NCBI GenBank assembly: GCA_018650645.1
Contig: JABIFP010000025.1
Span: forward strand, 7,976-71,975
From: Candidatus Magasanikiibacteriota bacterium
Lineage (GTDB): Bacteria; Patescibacteriota; Patescibacteriia; Magasanikbacterales; UBA922
DNA length: 64,000 nt
Direction of reading: 5' to 3'
A program made the translations under genes and the position numbers. The notes beneath the pieces were generated by a model. It had not been told where the DNA came from, did not search any database, and saw only the letters and a list, made by a program, of their open reading frames with translations. Of this stretch, positions 18,286 to 61,888 are shown in pieces (position 1 is the first letter of the stretch; each line of letters begins with the position of its first letter).

Positions 18286-18295
18286 TCATATACCT

Positions 18296-19747: not shown

Positions 19748-19748
19748 T

Positions 19749-29973: not shown

Positions 29974-30579
29974 ATGGGAAGGCCAAAGAAGAAGGATGCG
30001 TGGTGCAAGACCCGGTACGGGCGGATTGGCCGCCTGATGGCCGATCCGGAAACTACTCATGACCAGAGACTGTTCCTGTTGCAGCTCGAAGAGTACCTGT
30101 CGATGAACGTCGATCAGGCACTCGATATCCTCGAGTGGCGCGGTGAAGCGCACGTCATCACCTCGCGACTTCACGGCATGGTCGACGGCATCGACCCGAT
30201 CGCTGCCAGGCATGGGCTGAAGCTGCCGTTCACTGCGGAGGGCGAGGGCGTGAACACCACCTGGACGTGGATCGAGTGGCAGATGATCACGCCGATGGAC
30301 CTGTTCTGGCGGAGAACGGGGAAAGGGAACGCCCCTCTACTCCTTCAGCTACAGGAGGGAGGCAACCCCGAACAAATTGCGTGCGCGCTCTACAAATATC
30401 CCAAAGGTACCAAAATGGTGGGTTGGACACCGACTGATCTGCGCGAAGCTGCCGCAGATGCAATCGAGGCACTTTTGCAGACGGCCGAACGTGCGGGTCT
30501 CGGCAACGTCATTCAGACATCGACTGCCGACGGCGAACCCTACTACCGCTGGGTCGGCCCCCAGATCCCGCCCGCCTAG
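29974..30579 (+). CDS. hypothetical protein encoded in a GC-rich island
   Basis: A 201-aa ORF in a ~60% GC segment. A strong RBS taagggaggacggccATG precedes it. No recognisable domain. Confidence 0.5.
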   Translation: MGRPKKKDAWCKTRYGRIGRLMADPETTHDQRLFLLQLEEYLSMNVDQALDILEWRGEAHVITSRLHGMVDGIDPIAARHGLKLPFTAEGEGVNTTWTWIEWQMITPMDLFWRRTGKGNAPLLLQLQEGGNPEQIACALYKYPKGTKMVGWTPTDLREAAADAIEALLQTAERAGLGNVIQTSTADGEPYYRWVGPQIPPA

Positions 30580-37999: not shown

Positions 38000-38108
38000 A
38001 TATATGTATAGTACCCTGTGCATTGACTGTTGTCAACACTGTCTTGACAGACTACTTATTTAACTCTATTTAGCTATTTTACATAAGGAAGATACTGTCT
38101 ACACCATA

Positions 38109-38137
38109 TTGACAAAATGCTTTTTCTATGCTATAGA
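38109..38137 (+). promoter_or_regulatory. putative sigma70-type promoter (TTGACA-N17-TATAGA)
   Basis: catATTGACAaaat, then a 17-nt spacer, then TATAGA. The same catattgacaaaat motif recurs at 46380. Confidence 0.35.
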
Positions 38138-38169: not shown

Positions 38170-39210
38170 ATGAGCTCTATTTCACTTTCCACAGAATTCC
38201 GTCTGGCGCGCGAGTACCCTGGTAAAACTCTCCGAGACCTTGCCTTGCACGGCTTTCGTTTGGAGCAGCTTGAAAAATTTGAAGCTGGCGAAATGAATGA
38301 GGACGGCAATCCCTTGATCCAAGGTGCTCACCTACTACGCCTTGAAAAGCACCTCGGTAGTGCGCTGTACCACTTTGCTCCAGACAGTACCCGTTCCAGC
38401 CGATTGCTCCATGAAGTGTACCTCGCGCTGGCGCAGTTGAGTACGACGCCTCTTAAGTTGGCAGACATAGCAACCACACTGCAGCTGAAGACTGAAGACC
38501 TCTACGACGTCTGGAGAGGAAAACGAGCACTTGACCTTGAGGCGGGTAAGGCACTGCTCGGTTTGATCTCTCGTCTGCAAAACTGCGAATTTGCACTACC
38601 TGCGGCATACGGAAGGAGGATCTCCGCCGCAAGAAAGCGAGAAGGCCTTTCTCGAGAGGAACTTGCTCAAGCCGTACGAACACACCACTCCGTTGTGGAA
38701 ATGTGGGAGACTGATGAACTCTACCTAGCCGACGACCAGCATGCCGCGCTTGAATCGGTGTTAGGGCCGATGGAGAAAAGCCCAGCACACTGCAACGTGG
38801 ATCTCACGGCGCTCCTCAAGTCGCAGAGACATCTCAAGTCGAGGAGGCTCCAATTTTGGATCAGCGCAGCAAAGACAATCCGCATCGTGCGAGATGAAGG
38901 AGCCCCGCAGAGTGCTGACTGCCTTACGTGCACAACAGGTGACCCCATCAGAAAGTCTCCCCGCATAGGTAGGCCTCCAAAGATAGAACCTCCAAAAGAA
39001 CCCTGCAATTGGCCCCACATGCGTGATTGCACGCACCAACCAGCGGAAAGCCTCGCCATTCTCAGTAGCGACGAATCACAGCGACTGATGGTGGTATCCG
39101 AACCCAGCGGAGAATTGTGGGCACAGTACCTTTTTGAGAATCTGCACGCAACCGATTCCTACACACAATCCCTTCAATCCTTCCTCCGTGATTTCAAACC
39201 GCTCCGTTGA
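38170..39210 (+). CDS. XRE-type helix-turn-helix protein encoded in a GC-rich island (hypothetical regulator)
   Basis: Cro/C1-type HTH (RRISAARKREGLSREELAQAVRTHHSVVEMWE). ~60% GC. RBS aagaggtcccATG. Confidence 0.55.
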   Translation: MSSISLSTEFRLAREYPGKTLRDLALHGFRLEQLEKFEAGEMNEDGNPLIQGAHLLRLEKHLGSALYHFAPDSTRSSRLLHEVYLALAQLSTTPLKLADIATTLQLKTEDLYDVWRGKRALDLEAGKALLGLISRLQNCEFALPAAYGRRISAARKREGLSREELAQAVRTHHSVVEMWETDELYLADDQHAALESVLGPMEKSPAHCNVDLTALLKSQRHLKSRRLQFWISAAKTIRIVRDEGAPQSADCLTCTTGDPIRKSPRIGRPPKIEPPKEPCNWPHMRDCTHQPAESLAILSSDESQRLMVVSEPSGELWAQYLFENLHATDSYTQSLQSFLRDFKPLR

Positions 39211-39349
39211 GCCCAGCTCCGGAGCACCCCCCTTTTTTTAAAGGGATTTTTTTATAGAAAAAACTGCATACCAATTGATATGCAGTTTCCTATGGTGGAG
39301 CCATAACAGCTCCACCGGTCATGCCGCATTACTGCGGCGCTCCTTATGT

Positions 39350-40036
39350 TCAGTCAGGACTCAGGCGCACCAGCCGGAAGCCCACCGTCGGCGTGAGTGT
39401 GTTCGGGTCGAAGCATGAGAAGTCCTTGAACCCATGCCCCGGCATCGTCATGAAGTTCCGTTGCCCGTGCACGTAGTTGCAGCGGCCCTCGCCATCCGCA
39501 CTCCACTCAGAGACGTTCCCCCAGGGGCCGCGAATGCGACCCGCAGCAAGCTGCGGTACCGGCGTTGGCTTGTTCTTCAAGCAACGTGGGACCTCCCTCC
39601 ACGGACATCCCACCGCCCCATCAGGACCGTCCGTCAGGTGGATGGCAGCCGCCGCCCACTGCACGCGTGAAGCCATGGCGTAGGTACCCTTGTGTGTCCG
39701 CGAGTACCACTCTGCGTAGATCTTCGCATCGTACCAGCTGAGCCGCATCGGTGCGTCGAGCACCTGGTTCAGCTGAGTGAGATGACGCGGATACGGCCGG
39801 CTCGAACTGTTCACGAACTGCGCGTACTCACGCACCGTGACTGGATCACGCGCGATGGCGAAGGCCTTCTTGACCTCCACACGCTGATACCCGTCTGGCA
39901 ACCACCTATCGGTGGACGTTCCCATCTGCGCCTTATAGACGCCGGCCGGAACCGTTTCAAACCGCGGGAGTTCTTCAACTCCCGCCAGTGCGCTGCCGCC
40001 AAGCAGCACACTACATATCGTCATCCAAAAGCGCAT
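39350..40036 (-). CDS. secreted FGE-sulfatase (SUMF1/formylglycine-generating-enzyme-like) domain protein, GC-rich island
   Basis: A signal peptide, then WGNVSEWSADGEG, GHGFKDFSCFDP and GFRLVR signatures of PF03781. RBS gggaggaaagccATG. Confidence 0.7.
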   Translation of the reverse strand: MRFWMTICSVLLGGSALAGVEELPRFETVPAGVYKAQMGTSTDRWLPDGYQRVEVKKAFAIARDPVTVREYAQFVNSSSRPYPRHLTQLNQVLDAPMRLSWYDAKIYAEWYSRTHKGTYAMASRVQWAAAAIHLTDGPDGAVGCPWREVPRCLKNKPTPVPQLAAGRIRGPWGNVSEWSADGEGRCNYVHGQRNFMTMPGHGFKDFSCFDPNTLTPTVGFRLVRLSPD

Positions 40037-40158
40037 GGCTTTCCTCCCTGTTGAGTCTCAAGAAAACATGTATTCTGATATGCTATAGATATCAGATTTG
40101 TGCGGTTTCGTCAATGGGAGGGTTGAAAAAAAGCATGTTTTACGCTACACTCATGCAT

Positions 40159-40440
40159 ATGAAAAAAATACTAGATCAAAAACGACAATCACTCGCCAAT
40201 GTAGATGCAGGACTCCTTGCACTCCTTGAACGGCGTGTTGAACTTGCCAGAGAGTTTGCAACTATCAAAAAAGAACTCGACCTCTCTACTTTTTTACCAG
40301 GAGTTGAACAACAAAAGATTGCTTCGCTCAAAGAAAAGACCCATGATCCGTTTGTAAAAAATGCAATCGAAATTTTATGGCCGGTACTTTTTGGTGTCTC
40401 AAAAAAACTACAAGACGAGGTACGCGCAGAACATAAGTAA
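40159..40440 (+). CDS. chorismate mutase (AroQ class, ~93 aa)
   Basis: LDQKRQSLANVDAGLLALLERRVELAREFATIKKE matches the AroQ helix-1 pattern. The start is ambiguous (ATG at 40135, 40153 or 40159). Confidence 0.6.
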   Translation: MKKILDQKRQSLANVDAGLLALLERRVELAREFATIKKELDLSTFLPGVEQQKIASLKEKTHDPFVKNAIEILWPVLFGVSKKLQDEVRAEHK

Positions 40441-40476
40441 AAAAAAGCGGCCAACCCAAGGGTTGGCGCGCAAAGG
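40441..40476 (-). terminator. rho-independent terminator for the minus-strand GC-rich lipoprotein gene
   Basis: On the minus strand: gccaaccc tt gggttggc, then cgcttttttttac. Confidence 0.5.
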
Positions 40477-40493
40477 TCATGAGGCGTCAGCCC

Positions 40494-40928
40494 CTACTGC
40501 GAAGCGCAGTACAAGAGCCGAACGGCGTAGCGCTGAGGTGCGAAGCCGATGTCGACGACCTGACGGTTGTCATAGTCGCCCTCCGGCATCTCTTCCTCAG
40601 TCTTCATGACGTCGTGGTCGTCCATGGCGATGAACTCAGCGTCGTCGCGTTCCCCCAGCAGCAAGTCCACAGAGGACCCGTTCTGAGAGAGCAGGTGAAA
40701 CTGCAGCGGCTGACTGACATGAATCCGGAGATTCGTGCTACCCCCCGCCGGAACGCTGAGCAGATCACCCCCATCGAGGACGATGATCAGCGGCTCACTA
40801 CCGGCCTGCAGCCTGAGATCAGTGCTTTCGCACGCCCCCTCGCCGCCGTTGACTTCTTCTTCAGCGCCAGGATCACACCCGGCAACCCCGCCAGCCAAGA
40901 TAGCCAGCACCAACACATATCGTTTCAT
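40494..40928 (-). CDS. putative lipoprotein, GC-rich island (hypothetical)
   Basis: MKRYVLVLAILAGGVAGC has a lipobox. RBS ttggaggggaccATG. ~62% GC. Confidence 0.5.
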   Translation of the reverse strand: MKRYVLVLAILAGGVAGCDPGAEEEVNGGEGACESTDLRLQAGSEPLIIVLDGGDLLSVPAGGSTNLRIHVSQPLQFHLLSQNGSSVDLLLGERDDAEFIAMDDHDVMKTEEEMPEGDYDNRQVVDIGFAPQRYAVRLLYCASQ

Positions 40929-41307
40929 GGTCCCCTCCAAGGATCATTTTTGTTATGCAGCATTTGGCCGCATCTGAACAGTGTAGGGTCAAATGAGCAA
41001 TTTGTCAATGATGATATAGGCATTTTTCAGGAGGCCACCCTATTGACAAAAGCCCATTTTTATGGTATAGTTCTGCGTCGAATTGGTGACCTGATTTCAG
41101 CCTAGTTGAGATGAGTTCATCAGTGGTATTTGGCTAATTTTAGCGAAATATCCAATTGACTCACCAGTAGAGACGGAGCTGAGAAGCCACTCTTGTTACC
41201 TCTGTGACAACAGCGGTTTCTCAGTTCCATACATCAACCACCTCTCCTTCACACCTACCTTTGGAGAGGTATTGCTTCCCGCCAATGGCGGGTGATCGGA
41301 GAGCCGC

Positions 41308-42123
41308 ATGGCTCGCCTTTTCGTTCTGTTCCTGCTCGCCGCCCTGTCCACCGCCTGCGGCGGGAGCTGGGAGAACAGCTACGCCACCAAGAACTACGCG
41401 TGGGGTGAGAGCGATGTCACCCCGAAGCTGAACCCCAAGCAGCTCCAGACCTGGAGCAGCCTGACGGGGAAGATCTCCCGGTCCTACTACCCGGACGGCG
41501 TGGCGTTCTCGAAGTACCAGAACGTCGACACCTGGGATGCCAACCCGAATAAGGAAGGATATCACCCGCCCAAGCGGATCTCTTCCAGTACGGACATGCA
41601 GACAACGGAGAAGGCGCTTCTGACCAAAAAGATCCTCAGGATCTGTATGCCGAGCGCCCCGAAGAAGTGCAACAGGTCCACGACCATTCGCCTCTTCGTT
41701 CCCTTCGAGCAGCCGGACTGGAAGGTACACCCGGAGGGCCTCGTCGCCCATCATCTGATGGGCGACGTGCTCACGCAGCAGGATACCTACACGCTGCTGC
41801 TCCACATCGCCACTCAAATCCGGCAGATTCGCCAACGTAGGTTCCAGCAGTCCTGCAACGAGCAGGGCACGCCTGAGAACCTGCGACGAGTGTGCACGTC
41901 AAACATGAAAGAACATGGCTTCCTCCGCGACTTGAAGCCGCAGATCAACCGGTTGAAGAAGTCCCTATCCATCGGAAGGACGATCTCTGGCCCCTACCTG
42001 CCAATCCAGGAACTCCGAAAGGCGGACAGCGCTCTTGGCGACTACCTGGCCTACCAAAAGGGCGGCACCAAGCTGCACAACCACAAGGAGATGATGGCCC
42101 TCGCCGAGAGCCTCCTCCGTTAA
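41308..42123 (+). CDS. putative lipoprotein, GC-rich island (hypothetical)
   Basis: MARLFVLFLLAALSTACGG carries a lipobox and an upstream GGAGAG RBS. It is preferred over the antisense ORF 41221..41835. Confidence 0.5.
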   Translation: MARLFVLFLLAALSTACGGSWENSYATKNYAWGESDVTPKLNPKQLQTWSSLTGKISRSYYPDGVAFSKYQNVDTWDANPNKEGYHPPKRISSSTDMQTTEKALLTKKILRICMPSAPKKCNRSTTIRLFVPFEQPDWKVHPEGLVAHHLMGDVLTQQDTYTLLLHIATQIRQIRQRRFQQSCNEQGTPENLRRVCTSNMKEHGFLRDLKPQINRLKKSLSIGRTISGPYLPIQELRKADSALGDYLAYQKGGTKLHNHKEMMALAESLLR

Positions 42124-43166: not shown

Positions 43167-43592
43167 ATGGCAAAAGCAATTAAGGCTCAGATCAAATTGC
43201 AGATCAGAGGTGGCGCTGCTAACCCAGCACCTCCAGTTGGTCCAGCTCTTGGTCAACATGGGCTCAACATTCAAGACTTTTGTACGCAGTTCAACAATGC
43301 AACTGCAGACAAACGTGGAGAAGTAGTACCAGTTGTTATCGACGTGTACGACGACAGAACATTTACCTTCATCATGAAGGTTGCGCCAGCAAGCGCACTC
43401 ATCAAGTCTGCTCTTAACCTAAAGAGTGGATCTGGAAATCCTTTGAAAGAAAAAGTTGCAAAGCTTTCTAAAAAACAATTGCAAGAAATCGCAGAAAAGA
43501 AGATGCCAGACCTCAATGCAAATGACATTGAAGCAGCGATGAAAATTATTGCTGGAACAGCACGACAAATGGGAGTTACTATTGAAGAATAA
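43167..43592 (+). CDS. rplK: 50S ribosomal protein L11
   Basis: The N-terminal [11 protein letters not shown] motif is present, over 141 aa. Confidence 0.95.
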
Positions 43593-43608
43593 ACACTCCG
43601 CACATACA

Positions 43609-43637
43609 AAACTCGCCTCAATAGGCGAGTTTTGTTA
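43609..43637 (+). terminator. rho-independent terminator after rplK
   Basis: aaactcgcct caat aggcgagttttgtt. Confidence 0.75.
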
Positions 43638-43668
43638 TACTTGTGATATATTTTTCTTCGCATAGCAT

Positions 43669-44610
43669 ATGCCATCAGTAGTTTCTCGTATTCACTCGCC
43701 AACAGTCGCTATTATTGGCGCTGGTTTTGTTGGCTCTACCATTGCATATGCGCTCGCTATAAAAAATATCGCTTCAGAATTATTACTGATCGATATAAAT
43801 AAAGACAAACAAGAAGGAGAAGTCATGGACATTTCAGATGCCATGTGTTTTTTAGAAACAGGATGTGTCAGAAGCGCTACATATAAAGAAGCGCGCAAAG
43901 CAGATATCATTATTGTTACCGCTGGGGTCAATCAAAAACCTGGTGATACTCGATTAGATTTATTAGAAAAAAATGCCGGCATCATGCAATCGATTTTTTC
44001 TTCGATTGGAAAGCTGAGTAAAGATACAATTGTTATTGTCGTCTCAAATCCAGTAGATGTTTTAACGCAGCTTATTACCAAACTTACCAAGCTTCCAGCC
44101 GGACAAGTATTTGGTACAGGAACAACGCTTGATAGCGCACGACTCACATCGATTGTAGGACAGGAACTTGGAGTAAGTCCACAAAGTGTTCGTGGATTTG
44201 TATTAGGCGAACACGGCAACTCACAATTTGTTGCATGGAGCACGGTAACTATTGGCGGCGTACCTGCAAAAGATATTAAGGCGCTTAACGCTAAAGTAAA
44301 AAAGCGCATTGAAAAACGCGTGAAGCAAGAAGCCTATACTATTATTGAAAAAAAGGGAGCAACGTATTACGGCATCGGTCTTACTGTGGCAGACATTGTA
44401 GAAGCTGTCCTCTTTGATCAAAAAAAGATTATGCCAATTTCAGCGCCGCTAAAAAAATGGAATGGGGTGTCTGGAACATCGCTTGGATCCCCGCACGTGG
44501 TAGGAAGAAATGGGGCGGAAAGACAATGGCCAATGACACTTCCACCGCAAGAAAAAAAACAATTTGTGGCTTCAGCAAAATTGCTTCAATCAATGTATAA
44601 CTCGCTATGA
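43669..44610 (+). CDS. ldh: L-lactate dehydrogenase (LDH/MDH family)
   Basis: VAIIGAGFVGS NAD motif, a GEHGNS motif and a catalytic His region. Confidence 0.85.
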   Translation: MPSVVSRIHSPTVAIIGAGFVGSTIAYALAIKNIASELLLIDINKDKQEGEVMDISDAMCFLETGCVRSATYKEARKADIIIVTAGVNQKPGDTRLDLLEKNAGIMQSIFSSIGKLSKDTIVIVVSNPVDVLTQLITKLTKLPAGQVFGTGTTLDSARLTSIVGQELGVSPQSVRGFVLGEHGNSQFVAWSTVTIGGVPAKDIKALNAKVKKRIEKRVKQEAYTIIEKKGATYYGIGLTVADIVEAVLFDQKKIMPISAPLKKWNGVSGTSLGSPHVVGRNGAERQWPMTLPPQEKKQFVASAKLLQSMYNSL

Positions 44611-45470
44611 AATACCTGAAATACACCGCACTGTTTGCTAGTCTTTTGCTGGTGTTTGGATTTGGATGCTCATCAAAGACGCCCGCAGAAACACGCGTTG
44701 CGCAAAATGATGACATTGTTTCAAGCACGCCAATGCAAGAAGCATATTTGTTTTGTACAACACAAGGATACTCGGTTCACATTGAACGTTCTGCGGAATC
44801 TTTAAGTGGACATGTGTATTGTCAGTTTGACGAGGCGCGCAGTTGCCCAGCATTTGAATTCCTTTCTGGCGATTGTGATGTAGAAAATGCTGACGGTCAA
44901 TTACCAGCAGAAACAGCCGCAATTATTGATGAATCAGATCTTTCTATTTCTACTGGGCCAAGATTTTGCCCATCCGTTGCGGAACCGGTGTGTGGAGAAG
45001 ACAGCCGCACGTATGTAAATGATTGTGTAGCAGAACTGCAAGGCGTAGAAATTATTCATGAAGGTGCTTGTGAAAATCCGGTGATTTTAGACGACCCGGC
45101 ATCAGAAACTGACGCATCCGGAAGAAAAAGACGAACAGTTCGGAGTACAAATACATCCAGAAAGACTTCTAGCGGCAGTTCTTCATCAGGATCAACCAGC
45201 CAGTCTACTGACCGAGAGGTCACTCCTGAATCCCCAGATTGGATTGATAGCTTAATTGCTTTACTCCGAGCTGATGCGTCACTCAGCACGGCATCTATTG
45301 ATAGCTGCAAAGCTGGAAGCCGTACGTATTACCTGCAACGAGGAAATTTCTCTGCGCTGTACGATACACGAGGGCAAGTAATTTGTTACCCTGGTAGAGA
45401 CGTGCATGACACATGTCCGGAAAGTTACCGAGATGGCGAATTCAGGTGTCAGGAGATTTGGAAAAAATAG
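44607..45470 (+). CDS. lipoprotein with a DUF333 domain and a Kazal-type protease-inhibitor-like domain
   Basis: Lipobox VFGFGCSS. DUF333-like FCTTQGYS...YCQFDEARSC..EF.SGDC. Kazal signature EPVCGEDSRTYVNDC...EGAC. Translationally coupled to ldh (ATGA overlap). Confidence 0.6.
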   Translation: MKYLKYTALFASLLLVFGFGCSSKTPAETRVAQNDDIVSSTPMQEAYLFCTTQGYSVHIERSAESLSGHVYCQFDEARSCPAFEFLSGDCDVENADGQLPAETAAIIDESDLSISTGPRFCPSVAEPVCGEDSRTYVNDCVAELQGVEIIHEGACENPVILDDPASETDASGRKRRTVRSTNTSRKTSSGSSSSGSTSQSTDREVTPESPDWIDSLIALLRADASLSTASIDSCKAGSRTYYLQRGNFSALYDTRGQVICYPGRDVHDTCPESYRDGEFRCQEIWKK

Positions 45471-45482
45471 CATACAAAAGAA

Positions 45483-45512
45483 AAGAATCGCCAATGGCGA
45501 TTCTTTTTATAT
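45483..45512. terminator. bidirectional rho-independent terminator
   Basis: agaatcgcc aat ggcgattct then ttttat, with an A-rich stretch before it. Confidence 0.7.
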
Positions 45513-45601
45513 ACAAAAAAGCCGCACCAAGGTAACGAGCTTTCTCGTCCGCTTGTGTGCGGCGGTGCACGCGGTTGCATGCGTCCCTCCTTGTTGTGTG
45601 G

Positions 45602-45928
45602 TCAGCCCGGGGGGCCGATGATGATGATCTTGGGAGCAAAGCCGAACCTCTGTCCCGGGTGTCCCAGGATGACTCCACGACTGCCTTCCAAGGTGTCTTG
45701 GACAAACCAGCTCTTGGGGTCACGAAGCTCAAGCTCGCTGACACCCCAGTTCAAGATCAGACCGGTAGCCCCCTCTTCGACCCAATCAAGCCGCTGCTGG
45801 TGCCACGTACTCACATCCTCCGGCGGATAGTAGCGATTCGTGACAAGATCAATGCCAACATGTATCCCGCCATGACGGAAACATACCGTGCCCCCTACGA
45901 AGCGCTTCAACATCTCGAGTGTAACCAT
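45602..45928 (-). CDS. hypothetical protein, GC-rich island (strand assignment uncertain)
   Basis: A 108-aa ORF in tandem (12-nt gap) with the 45940-46299 ORF. The overlapping plus-strand ORF 45557..45958 cannot be excluded. Confidence 0.3.
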   Translation of the reverse strand: MVTLEMLKRFVGGTVCFRHGGIHVGIDLVTNRYYPPEDVSTWHQQRLDWVEEGATGLILNWGVSELELRDPKSWFVQDTLEGSRGVILGHPGQRFGFAPKIIIIGPPG

Positions 45929-45939
45929 CTACCCCTCCT

Positions 45940-46299
45940 CTACTGGTATTCGCACTGATCTCGCAGCGCTTGCCACTGAGTAAACGGCGGTTTCCAGATC
46001 TGGATACGCCGTACGACCAACCGTTTGAGATGGTCTGCGTCGTCCAGCTCGATTCTTCCGCCCTGCTCATGCAGCTTGCAAGAATCCATCAGGATATACG
46101 AGCCGTAGCGATCCGTGGCGACCCGCACAACTCGATACACCCGCACCTCAGCACTAAAAGCCTCTGTCCGAACCGAGACAAAATCCCCGATCTGGAGCAG
46201 GCTCAGCGCAGCGCTCAGTGCGGGCACCGAATCCGGCCGCTGCTGCGCAGAGGCGGTAACCGTCAGCAGAAGAGACACCAAAATCCACAGAACCTTCAT
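45940..46299 (-). CDS. secreted hypothetical protein, GC-rich island
   Basis: A signal peptide MKVLWILVSLLLTVTASAQQ. A strong RBS ctgggaggtcaatATG. Confidence 0.45.
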   Translation of the reverse strand: MKVLWILVSLLLTVTASAQQRPDSVPALSAALSLLQIGDFVSVRTEAFSAEVRVYRVVRVATDRYGSYILMDSCKLHEQGGRIELDDADHLKRLVVRRIQIWKPPFTQWQALRDQCEYQ

Positions 46300-46382
46300 A
46301 TTGACCTCCCAGTCAGTTTTTGCGATATCTGCTCTAGTTGTAGCATACATTCCCAAATATTTCAATACCAGCGCCCCTCATA

Positions 46383-46412
46383 TTGACAAAATCGCCATAA
46401 TATAATAGTATA
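46383..46412 (+). promoter_or_regulatory. putative promoter upstream of rplA (TTGACA ... TAGTAT / TATAAT)
   Basis: catATTGACAaaatcgccataaTATAATagtat. The spacing to TATAAT is short (12 nt), and 18 nt to TAGTAT. Confidence 0.3.
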
Positions 46413-46474
46413 CGCCCACTTAATACATGTGGGACTTCCGTCTAGGAAGGCTATCACCACGTAACCCTATTGCT

Positions 46475-47155
46475 ATGAGCAAGAGAATGAACGAAGCAAA
46501 CGCACAAGTTGAAGCAATTCGCGTATACTCACTTACTGAAGCTGTAGAACTTGTAAAGAAAACAAGCACAGTAAAGTTTGATGCTTCTGTAGAAGTACAT
46601 GTACGACTTGGAATCAACACCAAAAAAGGTGACCAACAAGTACGATCAACTGTGGTTCTTCCACACGGAACAGGAAAAACGAAACGCGTTGCAGCATTTG
46701 TTGCACCGAATGATGAAGAAGCTGCAAAAGCAGCAGGAGCGGACTTGGTACTTGGAGAAGAAGAAATCAAGACATTAAAAACAACAGGAAAAATCGATTT
46801 TGATGTAGCCGTTGCTACACCAGAAATGATGCCAAAGATTGCAGTAGCAGCAAGAGTGCTTGGACCCCGTGGTCTTATGCCAAATCCAAAAACTGATACT
46901 GTAGGAAAAGATTTTGCAAAAATGATTGGTGACCTGAAAAAAGGAAAAGCTGCATTTAAAAATGATGACACAGCAAATGTGCATCAGCTCGTTGGAAAAG
47001 TAAGTTTTTCTGAAGAGCAACTTGTAGAAAACATCACCGCATTCATGGATGCACTGAAAAAAGTAAAACCAGCAACAATGAAAGGAGTTTACTTCAAGTC
47101 ACTCACACTTACGAGTGCTATGGGACCTGGAGTAAAATTCTCTGTAGACGCGTAA
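46475..47155 (+). CDS. rplA: 50S ribosomal protein L1
   Basis: N-terminal MSKRMNEANAQVEAIRVYSLTEAVELVK..., a central DFDVAVATPEMMPKI segment and C-terminal GVYFKSLTLTSAMGPGVKF match L1 over 226 aa. ATG at 46475 in the track ORF frame. Confidence 0.95.
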   Translation: MSKRMNEANAQVEAIRVYSLTEAVELVKKTSTVKFDASVEVHVRLGINTKKGDQQVRSTVVLPHGTGKTKRVAAFVAPNDEEAAKAAGADLVLGEEEIKTLKTTGKIDFDVAVATPEMMPKIAVAARVLGPRGLMPNPKTDTVGKDFAKMIGDLKKGKAAFKNDDTANVHQLVGKVSFSEEQLVENITAFMDALKKVKPATMKGVYFKSLTLTSAMGPGVKFSVDA

Positions 47156-47200: not shown

Positions 47201-47263
47201 TTTCTCCAACGCAGCTAAGAAGCGTTGTTGGGGTTTGTGGTGCCTCTACCCGATCTGACTCCT

Positions 47264-47554
47264 TCAGGTCTCTGCGTCTTGAGGCGAGATAGAATACACG
47301 GAAACACCAATTCCCTCTTTCTGAATCTTCTGCGCGTCCACCAACTCCTCAAGCGCAAACCTGACAGCTGCCAAATTACATGCTGGCAGCGCAGCAAGAA
47401 TTGCTGCGGAAGCAAGAGGCCTCTCACTGCGCTCGAGAACCCTGAGTACGCGTTGACGCACCCTATGCCCAGCCCAGCTTGTCATGGCACCAAACAGCAA
47501 GAACAGCAGCATGACCCCAGCCATCACATACATGATCATGAATATCCCACCCAT
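47264..47554 (-). CDS. small hypothetical membrane / winged-helix-like protein, GC-rich island
   Basis: An N-terminal TM (MGGIFMIMYVMAGVMLLFLLFGAM) followed by a helical segment. The start is ambiguous (ATG at 47554 or TTG at 47596) and there is no clear RBS. Confidence 0.3.
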   Translation of the reverse strand: MGGIFMIMYVMAGVMLLFLLFGAMTSWAGHRVRQRVLRVLERSERPLASAAILAALPACNLAAVRFALEELVDAQKIQKEGIGVSVYSISPQDAET

Positions 47555-47632
47555 TTTGTACTGGCTGAAATTACCAAATGCAGAAGGTATTGTCAATGCT
47601 ACCCACTATCCCGAGTGAATCTAACGAAAACA

Positions 47633-47664
47633 AAAACAGCGCATGTATGCGCTGTTTTTGTTTT
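47633..47664. terminator. rho-independent terminator after rpsA (minus strand; copy 2, inverted, of the same hairpin)
   Basis: aaaaacagcgcat gtat gcgctgtttttgtttt is the exact reverse complement of the 47171-47200 element. Confidence 0.75.
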
Positions 47665-47672
47665 CTGCATGA

Positions 47673-48950
47673 TTACTCAGCAGCTTCTTCTTTTGCCTCT
47701 TCTTCCTTAGGAGCCTCCTCTACCTTTGGCGCTTCTTCCGCCTTAGGTGATTCTTCTTCCTTAGGTTCTTCTTCAACTTTTGGCTCCTCTTCTTTTGGTG
47801 CCTCTTCTACCTTAGGTTCTTCTGCTTTTGGCGCTTCTTCAGTAGACTTTTCAGCCTTCTTCTTAAGTCCACCAAGGCGAAGTCCCAATCGGTGCTCTGC
47901 AGCATCAATGTTGAGAATTTCAAATGTTGTTTTTTGTCCAAGAGTGAACATATCTTCAAGTTCTTTCACGTCGCGAATTGCTCGGTTTGAAACTTCAGAA
48001 ATGTGCGCAAGCCCATGAATATCTTCATCAAGCTTTACCATCAAACCAAATGGTTCGATTTTGTGGATTTCTCCTTCCACTTCTTGTCCAATTTTGTATG
48101 TTTCTTTCACACTCTTCCATGGATCGTCTACAAGACGCTTCATTGAAAGATAGATTTTTGATTTGTTGAGATCAATAATTTGCGCTTTTACGTTGTCACC
48201 AACCTTGAGCACATCTTTTGGATGATCAATTCGTTGCCAAACAATCTCTGAGATATGGATAAGTCCTTCAAGACCTTGTCCAAATTTCATGAACGCACCA
48301 AAACTGGTAAGCGCACTGATTTGTCCTTCAACAATATCTCCAATAGAGTATGAGTCAAGTACCGCTTTTTGATCGTCTTCCCAAACAGCCTTTTCTGACA
48401 CAATCAATTTTTCATCTTGTTCGTTGAGGTCAAGAACTTTTACATCCATTCCCATTCCAACAAAACTGCGGAGGTGTTCTAAAATACGATTTTTGTCACC
48501 ACCTTGTACACGAGGGTAATGTTCTGGAGCAAGTTGACTTACTGGCATAAATCCTACCAATGCGTCTACCTTGATCATCAAACCACCCTTGTTGGCAGCA
48601 ATAACTTTTCCTTTCACAACAAGTTCATCATCACAATACTTTTGCATTGTTTTCCAAACGCGTTGTTGTCCAGCAATACGGAATGATAATTCCATTTCAC
48701 CAGTTTCGTTTTCTTGTTCAACTACTGTTGCTTCAACAGCGTCTCCAACGTTAATGTCAGAATATTCACTTGATTCTGAAAACAGTTCATATCCACGGAC
48801 AAGTCCAGTGATAAGTCCATTTACATCAAGTCGAACGGCTCCGTTATCAATAGAGATAACTGTTCCGCTTACCAACTCTCCAACCTTTGGAAGTTGTGCA
48901 AAATAATCTTCTAACAGCGTTGCAAAGTCGCTTTGTGTTGTATTTGCCAT
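47673..48950 (-). CDS. rpsA: 30S ribosomal protein S1 (four S1 domains) with a C-terminal (E/A/P/K) repeat tail
   Basis: Four S1 repeats (e.g. GQEVEGEIHKIEPFGLMVKL). The tail is EEAPKAEEPKVEEAPKEEEPKVEEEPKEEESPKAEEAPKVEEAPKEEEAKEEAAE. Confidence 0.9.
   Translation of the reverse strand: MANTTQSDFATLLEDYFAQLPKVGELVSGTVISIDNGAVRLDVNGLITGLVRGYELFSESSEYSDINVGDAVEATVVEQENETGEMELSFRIAGQQRVWKTMQKYCDDELVVKGKVIAANKGGLMIKVDALVGFMPVSQLAPEHYPRVQGGDKNRILEHLRSFVGMGMDVKVLDLNEQDEKLIVSEKAVWEDDQKAVLDSYSIGDIVEGQISALTSFGAFMKFGQGLEGLIHISEIVWQRIDHPKDVLKVGDNVKAQIIDLNKSKIYLSMKRLVDDPWKSVKETYKIGQEVEGEIHKIEPFGLMVKLDEDIHGLAHISEVSNRAIRDVKELEDMFTLGQKTTFEILNIDAAEHRLGLRLGGLKKKAEKSTEEAPKAEEPKVEEAPKEEEPKVEEEPKEEESPKAEEAPKVEEAPKEEEAKEEAAE
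47690..47860 (-). repeat. in-frame nucleotide tandem repeats (~15-27 nt units) encoding the EAPK/EEPKV tail of S1
   Basis: Recurring cttcttc..ttagg..cttcttc..cctttgg units on the plus strand. Confidence 0.5.
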
Positions 48951-56366: not shown

Positions 56367-56909
56367 ATGAAAATTGCAATCATAGGAACACATTCTACAG
56401 GAAAAACCACGCTGTGTAAGCTGCTCCATGCAAAACTCACACTGCAACAAAAGGAAGCCTATTTAATGCCCGAATATGTCCGCATGTGCCCGTTTCCTAT
56501 TAACGAAGGAACCACGTTAGAGGCGCAGCAGTGGATTTTAAATCAGCAAATGATGCAAGAAGGCATGTATCATACGAATGATGATAAGATTATCATCTGC
56601 GACAGGGCGACTATAGATAATTTTGCCTACATGCATACGGCCTTTGCGGATTCAGAGCACGACATTGCTCCGCATGAAGCTGACGCCGTACGATTTATGC
56701 AGACGTACGACTACGTTTTTAAAACACATCGATTACCTATTGCGGCAAAGGCGGACGGCATACGCACAACAAATGAAGCGTTCCGCGAAACAATCGATAC
56801 TAATTTACAGAAGCTTTTACAAAAACATTCTATTGCTACTGTCCCCCTGCAAAAGACCATTGACTACGATATACACCTCAAAGACATCCTCGCTCTCATA
56901 AGCGCTTAA
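56367..56909 (+). CDS. P-loop NTPase, AAA_28-like (putative nucleoside/nucleotide kinase)
   Basis: MKIAIIGTHSTGKTTLCKLL Walker A; ~180 aa. Confidence 0.55.
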   Translation: MKIAIIGTHSTGKTTLCKLLHAKLTLQQKEAYLMPEYVRMCPFPINEGTTLEAQQWILNQQMMQEGMYHTNDDKIIICDRATIDNFAYMHTAFADSEHDIAPHEADAVRFMQTYDYVFKTHRLPIAAKADGIRTTNEAFRETIDTNLQKLLQKHSIATVPLQKTIDYDIHLKDILALISA

Positions 56910-56912
56910 AAA

Positions 56913-56937
56913 TACGGAAACGTATTTTTTTGTTTGG
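56913..56937 (+). terminator. rho-independent terminator
   Basis: aaaatacg gaaa cgtattttttt. Confidence 0.55.
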
Positions 56938-56996
56938 CGTATTGACGAGAGGCCCTATGTGTGGTTGTATGACCAGGAATCAAAAGGGGTACATTC

Positions 56997-57839
56997 ATGA
57001 AAATACGATTTGATGCAGGAGTCAGCCGAATTGTTGGCTGGAAGGTTGATCCGAGAGGGGAGAAAATTCCCCAATCTCAGCAAGACAGCTTCATTGTCAG
57101 CGAGAAGCTCGGTCTGTTCGTTGTCTTTGACGGCGTGGGTGGGCATGCAGGCGGAGAAGTTGCCAGCGCCATGGCGGCGACGCTTTTGGAAGAGAGCTTC
57201 ACGCTGCTGATACAAGTACTTGAGGTGGAAGCAGCACAGCGCGAACCCTACCGAATCCAATCGGAGATAGAAGCTGCGCTCAGGCGGGCCAGTAGAGCAA
57301 TCTACCACGCCGGCCGCAGAGATCCTGCGCTTGATTACATGGCCACCACAGTCAGCGGCGTCTTCTTCTACGAAGGAACCGCCTACTACTTCAACGTCGG
57401 CGACAGCCGCTGCTACAGGGAGCAAAACGGCGAGTTTGAGCAGATGACGCGGGATCACTCCTATGTGGCTGACCAGCTCTATGAGGGACTCATCACCGCA
57501 GAAGAGGCGCGAAACCACCCAGATCGAGGTGGGATGCACGCGGCACTTGGATTCCGCGACATTTCCGATTATGTCGATGTCCGCTACACACCCTCGCAGC
57601 CCGGCGACGGCTGGATCATCTGCACGGACGGCCTGGTGGACTACGCCGACCCGGACCGATGGGAAGTTGTAGCGTCTTCCCAACTACGCCGTGGCATCTG
57701 CACCGACGAGATCGCTACGACGCTGACCAACCTGACCACCGCAGAAGCCGGTATTCCACTGGGGTCTTTCCCCGGCGAGTACTACGACTACAACAGGTGC
57801 GACAACACCACGGTGATTGCACTGCGCATTTGCCGATGA
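56997..57839 (+). CDS. PP2C-family (PPM) serine/threonine protein phosphatase, GC-rich island
   Basis: VVFDGVGGHAGGEVAS, NVGDSR, TDGL and DNTTV motifs. ~62% GC. RBS aaaaggggtacattcATG. Confidence 0.8.
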   Translation: MKIRFDAGVSRIVGWKVDPRGEKIPQSQQDSFIVSEKLGLFVVFDGVGGHAGGEVASAMAATLLEESFTLLIQVLEVEAAQREPYRIQSEIEAALRRASRAIYHAGRRDPALDYMATTVSGVFFYEGTAYYFNVGDSRCYREQNGEFEQMTRDHSYVADQLYEGLITAEEARNHPDRGGMHAALGFRDISDYVDVRYTPSQPGDGWIICTDGLVDYADPDRWEVVASSQLRRGICTDEIATTLTNLTTAEAGIPLGSFPGEYYDYNRCDNTTVIALRICR

Positions 57840-57865
57840 ACAACCGAGGAGACGACAAAAAAACG

Positions 57866-57897
57866 ACCGGGGCTAGGGGCCCGGTCGTATTTTTTTT
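57866..57897. terminator. GC-rich rho-independent terminator after the PP2C gene; also downstream of valS
   Basis: acgaccgggg ctagggg cccggtcgt then attttttttg. Confidence 0.7.
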
Positions 57898-57899
57898 GC

Positions 57900-60794
57900 T
57901 TACTTTGTGACACTAATGTGCAATCTTTCTCCATTCAATACTTCTTCTTCAGCATCTGCGTCACCAAGCGTAATACTGTCTGCTAATACCGCAGAGGCAA
58001 AAGCATCTTTATATGTATCTACAACCTCTTGCACCATTGCGCTTTCCGTTTGCACCGTCACGTGCACACGCGCGTCTCTTGTTAATCCCTGCGCTTTTCT
58101 TTTTCCATTCACACTTCTAATTAACTCCCGGAGTAGTCCCTCTTTTTTCAATTCTTCAGTCATAGTAAGGTCGAGAGCAACATGCATATCAACTTCTTCG
58201 CGGATTTCCCAACCTGATTGCAATTCAGTAGCATGCGCTACTTTTTTTACATTTAACTCCTCAGCAATAATCGATTCGTAGGCAGTATCAAGCGCTTCCC
58301 CTGTGTATACAAATTGCCCAAGCGGCTGACGCACTTTTACTTTTGCATCTTTTCTTAATGACAATCCATACTCAACCATTTTTCTAACACGAGTCATCTG
58401 CAGTAATGCCGCAGAATCGACTTTTGGCATTTCGTTAGGCCAACGTTCCAAATGGACGCTTTCCGCTTCATCTTCGGCATGCACTTTCTGCCATACTTGC
58501 TCAGCAATAAAGGGTGTGAATGGCGCCATGAGTACGGCAAGTCGTTTCAATACTGTTTCAAGTGTCCCTAAACATGCTGCAGCATCTGCTTTATCACTTC
58601 CCTTCATGCGGTCTCTACTTCTTCGCACATACCACTGAGAAAGATCTAAAATGAAATCCATAATTGGCCGACTCGCTTCCGCCAAGCGGTACGCATCCAT
58701 CTCTGTTGTTACAGTAACCGTAAGCTCATCAAGTCGCGTAATAATCCATGCATCTAACACATGCGTAGAATCTGCTGCCGGAGTAATCTCTCCTGCAAAC
58801 AGTTCATAAAACACAACAACATTGGAAAGTGTATTCACTACTTTGTTAAATACTTCTCGTACTCCAACCTCAGAAAAACTCAAGTTTTCTGCAGAAACAA
58901 TCGGAGAAGACATCAAATAATAACGCAGTGCATCTGCTCCATATTTTTCTAGTACTCCCATTGGGTCTGGATAGTTTCGCAATTTTTTACTCATCTTTTT
59001 TCCATCTTCCGCCAAAGCAATACCGTTAACAATCACGTTTTCATATGCCGGCGTTCCTTTGATGGCCGTAGAAAGGACATGCAAGTAGTAAAACCACGCA
59101 CGTGTTTGATCATCTCCCTCTGCAATAAACTTAGCCGGAAATCCAGCTTCAAATTTTTCTTCATTTTCAAATGGATAATGCACCTGTGCATATGGCATGG
59201 ATCCAGAATCGAACCAAGTATCCAATACATCTGGAATACGTTTCATTTCTCCACCACAATCACATGCAAATACTACCTCATCTACAATATGTTTATGCAA
59301 GTCATCCACTTTTACTCCAGAAGCTGCTTCAAGCTCTGCAATAGATCCCATGACTTTACGTTCACACTTTTCAGGATTCTCTGTGCACTCCCAAACAGGC
59401 ATCACAGATGCCCAAAATCGCTGTCTTGAAATTGACCAGTCGCGTGCACCTGCTAACCAATTACCAAACCGTCCTTCTTTCATGTGTGAAGGAGACCAAT
59501 TGATTTTTTTTGCTTGTTCTAACGCATCTGCTTTTACTTTCGTCACCGCAACAAACCAACTACTCGTTGCGTAGTTTATAAGTGGCGTATCACAACGCCA
59601 ACAATGCGGATAACTATGTTCGTATTTCTTTTTGCTAAATAATTTTCCGTTATGTGCTAGCCATTTAATGATTTCAATATCCGTTTTCATGTGATCATCT
59701 TGCGGCTTCACATGCATGCCAGCAAAATCCGTTACATCATCTGTAAATCTTCCATTCATTTTTACATGCTGAATAAATGGCACGTTTTCTTGTTTGAAAA
59801 CTTCGTAATCATCCGTTCCAAATGCCGGTGCAAGATGTACCAGTCCAGTTCCGTCTTCTGTAGTGACAAAATCAGCTGTCACCACGCGAAATGAATTTTC
59901 TGAGTCTGCAAAATATGGGAACAGTGGTTCATACACCATACCAACCAAATCTGATCCGCTCGCATGCCCCATAACTTCAAATTCTTTTCCTTCAAAATTT
60001 TTCATTACCAAATCTTTGGCAACAATATAATGTGCATCTTCTAATTTCACCACCGCATATTCAACATCTGCCCCAACGGCTATGAGCACATTCCCCGGAA
60101 GCGTCCACGGTGTCGTTGTCCACGCTAAAAAGTAAATATCACCCTCAATATCTTGCAGTGCTTCTTTTTTATCAACCACTTTAAACTGCGCCGTTACAGA
60201 TAAATCTTTTACATCTTTATATCCTTCAGAAACTTCCTGCTGAGAAAGCGTGGTCTCACACCGCGGACAGATATGCATTGGCTTATAGCCTTTGTAAATC
60301 AAATCTTTTTCCCAAAGCTGCTTAAACACCCACCAAATCGATTCCATATATGGTGTATCCATGGTTCGGTAAGCGTTTTTCATATCCACCCAACGCCCAA
60401 GTCGAGTTACGACTTTTTCCCAATCATCAACATAACTCAAAATTTTTGTTCGGCACTTTTCATTAAAAACATCCACACCAAGTTCTTCAATTTCTTGTTT
60501 ACTTTTTGTGCCGAGTTCTTTTTCTACAATATTTTCAATTGGTAATCCGTGACAATCCCAACCCCAAACACGTTCAACTCTGTGTCCTTTCATTGTTTGG
60601 TATCTTGGCACCACATCTTTCATCACAGACCCAACAATGTGGCCATAATGTGGCAATCCTGTCGCAAACGGTGGCCCATCATAAAAAACATACGGTTTAT
60701 CTGCTGGCCGCTCACTTACTGATCTATTAAATACATCTTTGTCCTTCCAATATTTTAGGACATCGAGTTCATGTTCTTGAGGATTGTATGGCAT
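57900..60794 (-). CDS. valS: valine--tRNA ligase
   Basis: HIGH-region PFATGLPHYGH, KMSKKLRN, an editing domain and a C-terminal coiled coil. Probable start MPYNPQEHE at 60794; the track ORF extends to 60899 through the leader. Confidence 0.95.
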   Translation of the reverse strand: MPYNPQEHELDVLKYWKDKDVFNRSVSERPADKPYVFYDGPPFATGLPHYGHIVGSVMKDVVPRYQTMKGHRVERVWGWDCHGLPIENIVEKELGTKSKQEIEELGVDVFNEKCRTKILSYVDDWEKVVTRLGRWVDMKNAYRTMDTPYMESIWWVFKQLWEKDLIYKGYKPMHICPRCETTLSQQEVSEGYKDVKDLSVTAQFKVVDKKEALQDIEGDIYFLAWTTTPWTLPGNVLIAVGADVEYAVVKLEDAHYIVAKDLVMKNFEGKEFEVMGHASGSDLVGMVYEPLFPYFADSENSFRVVTADFVTTEDGTGLVHLAPAFGTDDYEVFKQENVPFIQHVKMNGRFTDDVTDFAGMHVKPQDDHMKTDIEIIKWLAHNGKLFSKKKYEHSYPHCWRCDTPLINYATSSWFVAVTKVKADALEQAKKINWSPSHMKEGRFGNWLAGARDWSISRQRFWASVMPVWECTENPEKCERKVMGSIAELEAASGVKVDDLHKHIVDEVVFACDCGGEMKRIPDVLDTWFDSGSMPYAQVHYPFENEEKFEAGFPAKFIAEGDDQTRAWFYYLHVLSTAIKGTPAYENVIVNGIALAEDGKKMSKKLRNYPDPMGVLEKYGADALRYYLMSSPIVSAENLSFSEVGVREVFNKVVNTLSNVVVFYELFAGEITPAADSTHVLDAWIITRLDELTVTVTTEMDAYRLAEASRPIMDFILDLSQWYVRRSRDRMKGSDKADAAACLGTLETVLKRLAVLMAPFTPFIAEQVWQKVHAEDEAESVHLERWPNEMPKVDSAALLQMTRVRKMVEYGLSLRKDAKVKVRQPLGQFVYTGEALDTAYESIIAEELNVKKVAHATELQSGWEIREEVDMHVALDLTMTEELKKEGLLRELIRSVNGKRKAQGLTRDARVHVTVQTESAMVQEVVDTYKDAFASAVLADSITLGDADAEEEVLNGERLHISVTK

Positions 60795-61000
60795 AGGAAA
60801 AATAAAAAAAACACCTGTAAAATGAGGACTCCATTGGAGCGGTACCACCTCAATTCCACACGTGTGGCGCTTGATTACAGCTGTACTGGGCTTACCCATG
60901 GGATTCTACTTGGCTGTTTGCCGTTCTTTCCCTTGCGCATCGATTCGATTCCCGGTTGATTGCCGGTATGGCGCTTGTTTTTATTGTGGATTTACTATAG
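60795..61000 (-). promoter_or_regulatory. putative T-box riboswitch leader of valS
   Basis: The minus strand reads AATTGAGGTGGTACCGCT, ~45 nt upstream of the start (T-box consensus AATTAGGGTGGNACCGCG). Downstream is ...ACAGGTGTTTTTTTT. Upstream is a TTGACT-N16-TATAGT promoter. Confidence 0.5.
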
Positions 61001-61111: not shown

Positions 61112-61888
61112 TCAGCTCAGATGACCTGCTTGCTGAAGCAGCGTCACTAGAGCCTTGGGATCCACGGCAAGCTTGGCAAGCTCGCTCTCTGCGCGAAGCC
61201 GCTGCACTTGTAGCTCACCAGCCTCAATAGCGGTGGCGAGCGCCTCTTTCCTGGCATGCGAGAGGGCCTTCTCCGCCTGACGCTCCCCTTCCGTCCGCTT
61301 CATGGACTGCAGTTCATCATAGGCGCGACCACACTCAGCCTGAGCAGCCTCATACGCGGTGACAGCGCTCTGAAGAGTACGCTGGAGCTGACGCACCTCA
61401 CCAGCGTGAATCTCCACACCCGCCTGATGAGCCAATAGAAGTTGTTCAGCCTCAGCCATCGGTGTCATGCCGCCGACGAGTAGTCCGCTGACCATGCCGA
61501 TCTCACTCTCGACCTGCGCTCGCTCTGTTTGGTGCCCGCGTAGGTTCTTCTTCGCCACCGCCAGCTCGTACCCGTCCCCCACAACGGCGGCCAGCCTGTC
61601 GCGAAGCGCTGATGGCTTCATCCCTTTCAGCGATAGCTTGAGCTCCGTTCGCGTGGAGTTGTTGCCCGGCTGCACCGTGACCGTCACGCCGCTCGAGTCG
61701 ATATCCCCGATCTTGGCGTTCTGGAGACCCTTGGTGTGTCCCGTACCTCTCGGCATCCCGCTCGTAAGCTTCACCGATAGCTCCCCTGCGAGCTGAGCAA
61801 GCTCGGCCCACTCGCGAAGAATCCTCTCCAAGAGCCTCTTGAGCTTTGAGTCGGGATCATGCCCCTTAAACTCAATTTGCAAACTCAT
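61112..61888 (-). CDS. hypothetical coiled-coil protein, GC-rich island
   Basis: A 258-aa ORF, ~62% GC, whose C-terminal half is Ala/Glu/Gln-rich heptad-like sequence. No recognisable domain. Confidence 0.5.
   Translation of the reverse strand: MSLQIEFKGHDPDSKLKRLLERILREWAELAQLAGELSVKLTSGMPRGTGHTKGLQNAKIGDIDSSGVTVTVQPGNNSTRTELKLSLKGMKPSALRDRLAAVVGDGYELAVAKKNLRGHQTERAQVESEIGMVSGLLVGGMTPMAEAEQLLLAHQAGVEIHAGEVRQLQRTLQSAVTAYEAAQAECGRAYDELQSMKRTEGERQAEKALSHARKEALATAIEAGELQVQRLRAESELAKLAVDPKALVTLLQQAGHLS

Follow-up and report, generated by a model that had tools for sequence, protein, structure and literature searches.

A divergent, GC-rich PP2C-family phosphatase gene convergent to ileS in a Magasanikbacteria genome

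The 64-kb stretch of DNA analysed here (the window; contig JABIFP010000025.1 of a Candidatus Magasanikbacteria bacterium) carries on its forward strand, at positions 56997 to 57839, a complete open reading frame (ORF) of 280 amino acids encoding a genuine PPM/PP2C Ser/Thr phosphatase, hereafter PP2C, which lies between an AAA_28 P-loop NTPase gene and the convergent isoleucine-tRNA ligase gene ileS. All together, the data are best explained, with a probability that we put at about 0.7, by an active, soluble, cytoplasmic and Mn2+/Mg2+-dependent enzyme of the Stp1/PrpC/tPphA type, directed at the organism's own proteins and encoded by an old, vertically inherited acquisition. Specifically, PP2C most likely dephosphorylates phospho-Ser/Thr proteins of the Magasanikbacterium itself, and it would be transcribed as its own unit, from a native-looking promoter and Shine-Dalgarno (SD) sequence lying upstream to a bidirectional terminator common to ileS. 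The gene would have been acquired, or would have arisen, in the ancestor of a narrow Magasanikbacteria sub-clade, to be then inherited vertically with ileS and the AAA_28 gene under purifying selection, keeping a codon usage that is C-ending and rich in guanine and cytosine (GC). The opposing kinase would be encoded beyond the approximately 75 kb searched for partner genes, that is the window plus 7.4 kb of left and 3.8 kb of right flank, out of a genome of about 610 kb.

GenBank already lists the identical protein, MBT4153784.1 ('serine/threonine-protein phosphatase [Candidatus Magasanikbacteria bacterium]'), encoded on contigs that reach 614 kb. In addition, independent assemblies from at least five samples contain this locus with identical junctions, which rules out an assembly chimera or other artefact.

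Family, fold and active site of the phosphatase

The PP2C/PPM family had been proposed in the first-pass annotation of this DNA, and the Pfam check bears it out: the protein scores 55.1 bits against PF13672 (PP2C_2; E 9.9e-15, cutoff 24) and passes marginally against PF00481 (PP2C; 22 bits vs a cutoff of 20.3). The motifs quoted there are all present, namely FDGVGGH (residues 44-50), GDSR (135-138), TDGL (210-213) and DNTTV (269-273), in the one complete ORF confirmed within the interval 56950-57900.

The closest solved relatives by sequence, in a search of the PDB, are tPphA (4e-27), PstP (3e-21), PppA and Stp1. An AlphaFold2 model built with 40 homologues reached a pLDDT of 91.2 and a pTM of 0.89, with low confidence only in the loop at residues 250-266, and its best Foldseek matches are tPphA, PstP, PppA, MspP and Stp1 (TMt 0.84-0.91). 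The model has the PP2C fold, a central beta-sandwich with flanking helices, with a Foldseek probability of 1.00 to tPphA, PstP, Stp1, PppA and human PPM1A.

The metal site is intact. In an alignment of the protein with 39 homologues (A1), the ligands D30, D45/G46, D136, D211 and D269 are invariant, and the aspartates among them correspond to those of PPM motifs 1, 2, 5, 8 and 11 as defined in PMC12088040, the motif-5 residue being the one for the third metal. Motif 11 reads 'DN' and not 'DD', and the motif-5 Arg (GDSR) is present; PP2C therefore falls into Groups I-III of the same scheme (Stp1/PrpC-like) and not into the RsbU/SpoIIE 'DD' groups. The same features bear on the hypothesis that PP2C is a partner-switching phosphatase like RsbU, RsbP or SpoIIE, with a STAS-domain anti-anti-sigma factor as its substrate. 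A weak match to the Pfam SpoIIE model (21.6 bits, below the cutoff of 25) speaks for it; nevertheless, besides the 'DN' of motif 11, PP2C is a single-domain protein with no N-terminal regulatory domain, its best matches are Stp1, tPphA and PstP, and no STAS gene and no RsbW-like or other anti-sigma kinase gene was found in the 75 kb, which leaves this role exceedingly improbable.

Several features of the protein weigh against an ordinary, fully active member of the family. Although its match to NF033484, the NCBIfam model for Stp1/IreP, is strong (E 6e-42), the score of 143.8 bits stays below the equivalog cutoff of 230. The motif-1 Arg, a phosphate contact found in at least 90% of the homologues (column R25 of A1), is Pro25 here and Gly in the closest relative, P0002, the N28 position is occupied by Gln, and the usual MGTT reads MATT. 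A 15-residue insert of low model confidence (residues 252-266) stands directly before the last metal ligand, D269. With the motif-1 Arg, N28 and MGTT changed and the insert so placed, an altered substrate binding or activity is possible.

Carried further, these changes could mean an impaired or re-purposed fold, that is, a pseudophosphatase or an enzyme for a non-protein phospho-substrate, brought about by the loss of the motif-1 Arg; the specificity of the insert beside D269 to the subfamily formed with P0002 and the sub-cutoff Stp1/IreP score fit with this. We regard it as unlikely, since the five metal aspartates, Gly46 and the motif-5 Arg have been kept in both members of the subfamily after long divergence, which argues for selection on catalysis. 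Moreover, the motif-1 Arg is not universal, as Groups IV and V of PMC12088040 show no conservation of the motif-1 residues, a comparison that concerns conservation and not activity.

Relative to typical members, PP2C has an N-terminal extension of about 10 residues. Neither a transmembrane segment nor a signal-peptide-like N-terminus is seen in it, the maximum Kyte-Doolittle value over 19 residues being 1.28. Conservation of three cysteines, Cys235, Cys268 and Cys279 (57699-57701, 57798-57800 and 57831-57833), is limited to the two members of the subfamily, with Cys268 directly before D269; one may speculate about a redox or metal-related regulatory feature.

In conclusion, PP2C is a divergent phosphatase of the Stp1/PrpC/tPphA type, and it is not a Stp1/IreP equivalog by its score, its missing motif-1 Arg or its context. 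It is probably catalytically active, as predicted from the retained active site, cytoplasmic and metal-dependent, with possibly altered contacts to the substrate phosphate, and its substrates would be proteins and not small molecules. As an enzyme it is of an ordinary kind, if unusually divergent, and adds little, PP2C phosphatases being ubiquitous and this one being annotated in GenBank; it does define a rare subfamily in which the phosphate-binding motif is altered.

Gene layout, orthologue and age

The searches for relatives covered 5.8e9 proteins, with an exhaustive search of 1.84e9 representatives. P0002 is the sole close relative in both. In the latter, the PP2C subfamily consists of two members: P0002 scores 320 bits, and the next sequence 132 bits, with 38% identity over residues 12-218. 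No further member appeared in scans of JGI metagenome_contigs or IMG/VR with the two-sequence alignment as query. P0002 is a 55% identical orthologue encoded at a locus of another lineage (L006), in the same order of AAA_28, PP2C and convergent ileS. The isoleucine-tRNA ligases (IleRS) of the two loci are 69% identical, and so are the AAA_28 proteins as far as the C-terminus encoded at positions 1-177 of L006 allows a comparison.

The gene stands out in composition, less so than the first-pass figure of about 62% GC had indicated. The ORF has 57.7% GC and the interval 56950-57900 has 56.8%, and only 200-nt sub-windows reach 61-62%. The GC content at third codon positions (GC3) of the coding sequence is 0.66 vs 0.33 for ileS and 0.34 for pepA, the neighbours having 41-43% GC; codon choice is C-ending and the amino acids are enriched in Gly, Ala, Arg and Pro. 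P0002 deviates in the same direction, with 61.8% GC and a GC3 of 0.785, vs 41.7% GC for the ileS of L006. The excess stops at the ends of the coding sequence, with 41% GC in the upstream spacer and 35% in the downstream spacer outside the terminator stem.

Both flanks carry conserved signals. Upstream, an SD-like AAGGGG at 56984-56989 on the forward strand, 7 nt before the ATG, agrees with the ribosome-binding site noted earlier, and its equivalent in L006 is GGAGGGAGG. It is preceded at 56942-56970, on the same strand, by a promoter-like block, TTGACG-N17-TTGTAT, which is conserved in L006 as TTGACA-N17-TTGTAT; in an alignment of the two loci (A3), ATTGAC and TGGTTGTAT are invariant, and the whole conserved block reads TATTGAC[GA]-N17-TTGTAT. 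As a generic sigma-70 scan did not call this block, its promoter function is inferred. Downstream, a bidirectional intrinsic terminator at 57863-57888, with a 9-bp GC-rich stem, an A-run upstream and a T-run downstream, folds on both strands (-23.3 and -21.8 kcal/mol; z -4.45 for the -23.3 fold), and its stem, ACGACCGGG/CCCGGTCGT, is identical in sequence in L006. The GC-rich terminator with which the first-pass annotation had credited the gene does exist, as a hairpin and T-run; it does not belong to PP2C only, being common to the convergent ileS.

The upstream neighbour had been correctly named as an AAA_28 gene (56367-56909, forward strand, 180 amino acids as called; called as a gene in L001). 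It matches Pfam PF13521 (E 6e-20) and the ribosylnicotinamide-kinase (RNK) part of TIGR01526 (E 1e-6), is NadR ribosylnicotinamide-kinase-like and has a near-native GC content of 43%. After its stop codon, a small hairpin with a T-run at 56908-56931 on the forward strand (-7.8 kcal/mol, z -2.8) is a likely terminator, and L006 has a different hairpin with a T-run at the same place; AAA_28 thus has its own terminator, and PP2C would therefore be monocistronic. The downstream neighbour, on the other hand, had been taken for valS and is ileS (57900-60899, reverse strand, 999 amino acids as called), a type 2 isoleucine-tRNA ligase with DUF5915 which scores 911 bits against TIGR00392 (cutoff 621) and 451 against the valS model (cutoff 612). 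Its true start is probably Met36 at 60794, where the alignment with the L006 orthologue begins; the first 35 residues as called resemble read-through of the upstream spacer. An antisense ORF of 242 amino acids (56955-57683, reverse strand) overlaps the PP2C gene; rather than a gene, it is in the simplest view a side effect of the scarcity of stop codons in GC-rich sequence.

The ileS loci of four other Magasanikbacteria (L007, L009, L038 and L039), the IleRS of which are 57-67% identical to that of the window, carry neither PP2C nor AAA_28 downstream of ileS, despite a conserved rpe-rpiB-ileS synteny. AAA_28 thus adjoins PP2C in both lineages that have the phosphatase and is missing from the ileS locus where PP2C is absent. 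Unrelated GC-rich ORFlets or stretches occupy the PP2C position in L009, L038 and L039, and not in L007.

This patchy distribution and the deviating composition (GC3 0.66 vs 0.33, with C-ending codons and Gly/Ala/Arg/Pro enrichment) would fit with a recent island of horizontal gene transfer (HGT), a foreign phosphatase gene inserted between AAA_28 and ileS and still outside host regulation. The orthologue in L006 largely refutes such a reading, since it lies at the same position and its synonymous sites have diverged like those of ileS: at 4-fold degenerate sites under identical amino acids, the two PP2C copies are 41% identical (31% expected) and the two ileS copies 45% (30% expected), so that PP2C has diverged as much as ileS. 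The GC excess is confined to the coding sequence and the flanks hold the native-type promoter block and terminator, no flanking direct or inverted repeats, tRNA, integrase or transposase were found around the gene, and no donor lineage can be named from the sequences compared, the nearest relative outside the subfamily being only 38% identical. A recent island is for these reasons quite unlikely. A phage origin was also considered and rejected, matches in PHROGs and INPHARED being only to generic PP2C at 30-35% identity, as was membership in a defence system, the only PADLOC match being marginal (PDC-M21C, E 0.002).

The orthologue at the same position, the equal synonymous divergence and the conserved flanking signals indicate that PP2C is not a recent insertion, and identify it, as far as the compared loci allow, as an accessory gene that belongs to a narrow sub-clade of Magasanikbacteria, acquired before the split of the window and L006 lineages. 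Of the features of a genomic island it shows the atypical composition, a partly matching distribution (absent from four loci, present in L006) and none of the signs of mobility. The word 'foreign', used in the first-pass annotation, is accordingly apt for the composition and for the absence from the four loci, and not for a freshly inserted island, given the L006 orthologue and the native flanks.

Two observations sit uneasily with this history. The IleRS distances fit a branching of L038, which lacks PP2C, either inside or outside the pair formed by the window and L006. In addition, the 4-fold GC of the two PP2C copies is 0.65 and 0.83; under a simple F81 amelioration model, with the 4-fold sites of ileS serving as the clock (retention 0.21) and an equilibrium 4-fold GC of 0.36, these values need an ancestral 4-fold GC of 1.17 (bootstrap 95% interval 0.95-1.46, with 7% of bootstraps at or below 1.0), an estimate from 83 sites and a crude model. 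The retention of GC3 (0.66 and 0.79) is thus hard to square with vertical inheritance plus neutral amelioration, which is suggestive only. It is possible that silent sites in the donor were nearly all G or C, that the two lineages got or exchanged PP2C after the split of their ileS genes, or that something keeps these coding sequences GC-rich.

Signalling context and the GC-rich ORFs

No Hanks kinase was found in the window, in agreement with the first-pass annotation: tblastn searches with PknB and PrkC as queries returned nothing below E 0.1, and no HRDxKxxN motif was seen. Pfam scans of the window ORFs (about 60, essentially all) revealed no Pkinase, FHA, STAS or PII domain, and the two flanks added no kinase, FHA, STAS or PII gene. 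The description of PP2C as a 'lone' phosphatase holds for the 75 kb inspected out of the 610-kb genome. As a candidate protein kinase partner, AAA_28 gave no informative PDB relatives and a similarity that is only NadR-RNK-like. The lack of a partner or substrate gene in the window and its flanks counts against the self-directed role proposed here, in which the opposing kinase would be encoded elsewhere in the genome.

The scans did find two-component sensors and receivers, type IV pilus genes and core metabolism. A histidine kinase with dCache, HAMP and PAS domains, a second dCache protein, a CHASE-domain protein and two receiver-only response regulators lie at 3677-9624 and 28315-28686; two-component signalling is thus near the phosphatase and not linked to it. 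At 10993-12243 and 13678-20423 the window encodes a type II NADH dehydrogenase (NDH-2) and an oxidative pentose-phosphate cluster that is complete (transaldolase, PGI, 6PGD, G6PD and 6-phosphogluconolactonase); given a genome of about 0.6 Mb, this is a comparatively rich core of redox and carbon metabolism.

Patescibacteria are mostly episymbionts, and the first-pass annotation had suggested that the phosphatase might modulate host signalling. An epibiont would then deliver PP2C into or onto its host, erasing the Ser/Thr phosphorylation of host signalling or threat sensing. According to a preprint (PMC13622651), actinobacterial hosts sense Saccharibacteria through a pathway leading from a Ser/Thr kinase to FHA phosphothreonine recognition, and counter-measures by the epibiont are predicted; the gene evolves fast, is specific to its lineage and departs from the core genome in composition, with no cognate kinase nearby. 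However, PP2C has no signal peptide, no transmembrane segment and no recognisable secretion or toxin-delivery domain, it does not lie beside the type IV pilus/secretion genes of the window (21.5-28.3 kb), and nothing ties the organism to a particular host. We therefore find no support for the suggestion and hold a host-directed effector to be highly unlikely, a speculation under which PP2C would be a first candidate for an epibiont counter-measure against kinase-based sensing by the host. Self-directed targets are the more plausible ones. Our literature search found nothing on PP2C or Ser/Thr kinases in Magasanikbacteria or in the candidate phyla radiation (CPR), and PP2C shows that components of Ser/Thr phospho-signalling occur as patchy accessory genes in the ultra-small genomes of Patescibacteria.

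By composition, the ORFs of the window divide into two classes: about 50, most of them recognisable genes, have a GC3 of 0.24-0.46, and about 11 have a GC3 of 0.51-0.83. A Pfam family scores above cutoff in 2 of the 11 GC-rich ORFs vs 40 of the 50 low-GC ones (Fisher p 2e-4), the two being PP2C and a protein similar to FGE-sulfatase. The roughly ten other GC-rich ORFs or segments (13154-13579, 29974-30579, 38170-42123, 45557-46386, 47225-47710 and 61112-61888; GC 49-62% and GC3 0.51-0.83 in a genome of 41-43% GC) are almost all ORFans. For orf258 (61112-61888) the sole match in 5.8e9 proteins is itself, and the ORF at 41308-42123 had no match in the protein search, not even itself, so that it may not be called as a gene; since GC-rich DNA is poor in stop codons, the ORFs at 40479, 45557, 45970, 47225 and 41308 may not be real genes.

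In all-vs-all comparisons by blastp, blastn and tblastx, the GC-rich ORFs resembled neither each other nor the GC-rich ORFlets of L006, L007, L009, L038 and L039, so that paralogy and a common element were rejected. Apart from PP2C they matched no PHROG or other phage family and no Rfam family; structured RNAs were likewise rejected, since the window yielded neither an Rfam match at gathering thresholds nor a tRNA or tmRNA. The ORFlets of the other Magasanikbacteria (L007 2852-3124; L009 7070-7432, 11000-11130 and 16517-16822; L038 9077-9370; L039 9139-10411; L006 4434-4673) are short, mutually non-homologous and set between AT-rich core genes, and they turn up repeatedly right beside ileS, downstream or upstream, which points to either a hot spot of turnover or a feature that these genomes have in general.

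A promoter-like motif, CACCnTATTGACAAAA-N-TATGnTATAG, is repeated at 38037-38071, 38102-38136 and 41036-41070, where it precedes GC-rich ORFs. The TATTGACA-type -35 of the PP2C block is found again at 38102 and 41036, and the TATTGAC -35 type of the repeated motif also precedes PP2C. In L007 and L009, TTTGACA-N17-GGTAAAT follows ileS.

The FGE-sulfatase-like ORF (39350-40036, reverse strand, 62% GC) has an FGE-sulfatase/C-type-lectin-like domain, a fold typical of the target proteins of diversity-generating retroelements in CPR. Such an element was rejected here, as neither a reverse transcriptase nor a template/variable repeat pair was found within 37-43 kb. At 43167-47155, ldh, a gene for a Kazal-domain protein and about 0.9 kb of GC-rich DNA lie between rplK (L11) and rplA (L1), which are normally adjacent; the ORF following rplA (47225-47710), also GC-rich, has no Pfam match, and L10 (rplJ) was not recognised there.

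One very doubtful idea on the origin of these 11 or so ORFs, mostly ORFans, is that they and PP2C among them form a lineage-specific accessory set which Magasanikbacteria keep compositionally apart from the AT-rich core, captured from or tuned to GC-rich hosts, with PP2C acting on host phospho-Ser/Thr signalling, e.g. Esr-type threat sensing; retention of GC3 beyond neutral amelioration would then reflect selection or repeated exchange, and not history alone. As the only functionally recognisable and evolutionarily traceable member of the class in an AT-rich genome, PP2C is, because it has an orthologue, a calibration point for deciding whether the GC-rich ORFs are slowly ameliorating foreign DNA or are held GC-rich by selection.

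Comparison with known islands and phosphatases

Up to 13% of genome length in Patescibacteria has been attributed to HGT (PMC12455944), and PP2C resembles the islands described there in its atypical composition, its patchy distribution among relatives and its accessory function. Unlike them, it stands as one gene between native flanks, mobility genes, repeats and tRNA being absent, it predates a lineage split, it is GC-rich and not AT-rich, and it has no identifiable donor.

With PstP of Mycobacterium tuberculosis (PDB 1TXO/2CM1), PP2C shares the fold (TMt 0.88-0.91) and an active site of the three-metal type. PstP is membrane-anchored, has an extracellular domain and is encoded in the pknA/pknB operon, whereas PP2C has neither a transmembrane segment nor a kinase neighbour. 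The Stp1/IreP/PrpC phosphatases (NF033484) of monoderm bacteria and Mycoplasma have the same domain, the 'DN' of motif 11 and the GDSR of motif 5, and are likewise cytoplasmic and single-domain; in Mycoplasma, the phosphatase is also retained in a very small genome (PMC3639085). PP2C differs from them in that it is not in an stp-stk operon, has no Hanks kinase within about 75 kb and lacks the motif-1 Arg.

The closest solved relative is tPphA of Thermosynechococcus elongatus (PDB 2J82/2J86/5ITI), the best match both by sequence (E 4e-27) and by structure (Foldseek E 1e-19, TMt 0.86). The two are only about 27% identical in the structural alignment: Arg13 of tPphA is replaced by Pro25, PP2C has in addition the N-terminal extension of about 10 residues, the 15-residue insert before the last Asp and the three extra conserved Cys, and no gene for the PII (GlnB) substrate was seen near it. 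Nevertheless, both are single-domain, soluble bacterial PP2Cs with a flap region, and the tPphA ligands D18, D34, G35, D119, D193 and D231 correspond one by one to D30, D45, G46, D136, D211 and D269 of the window protein.

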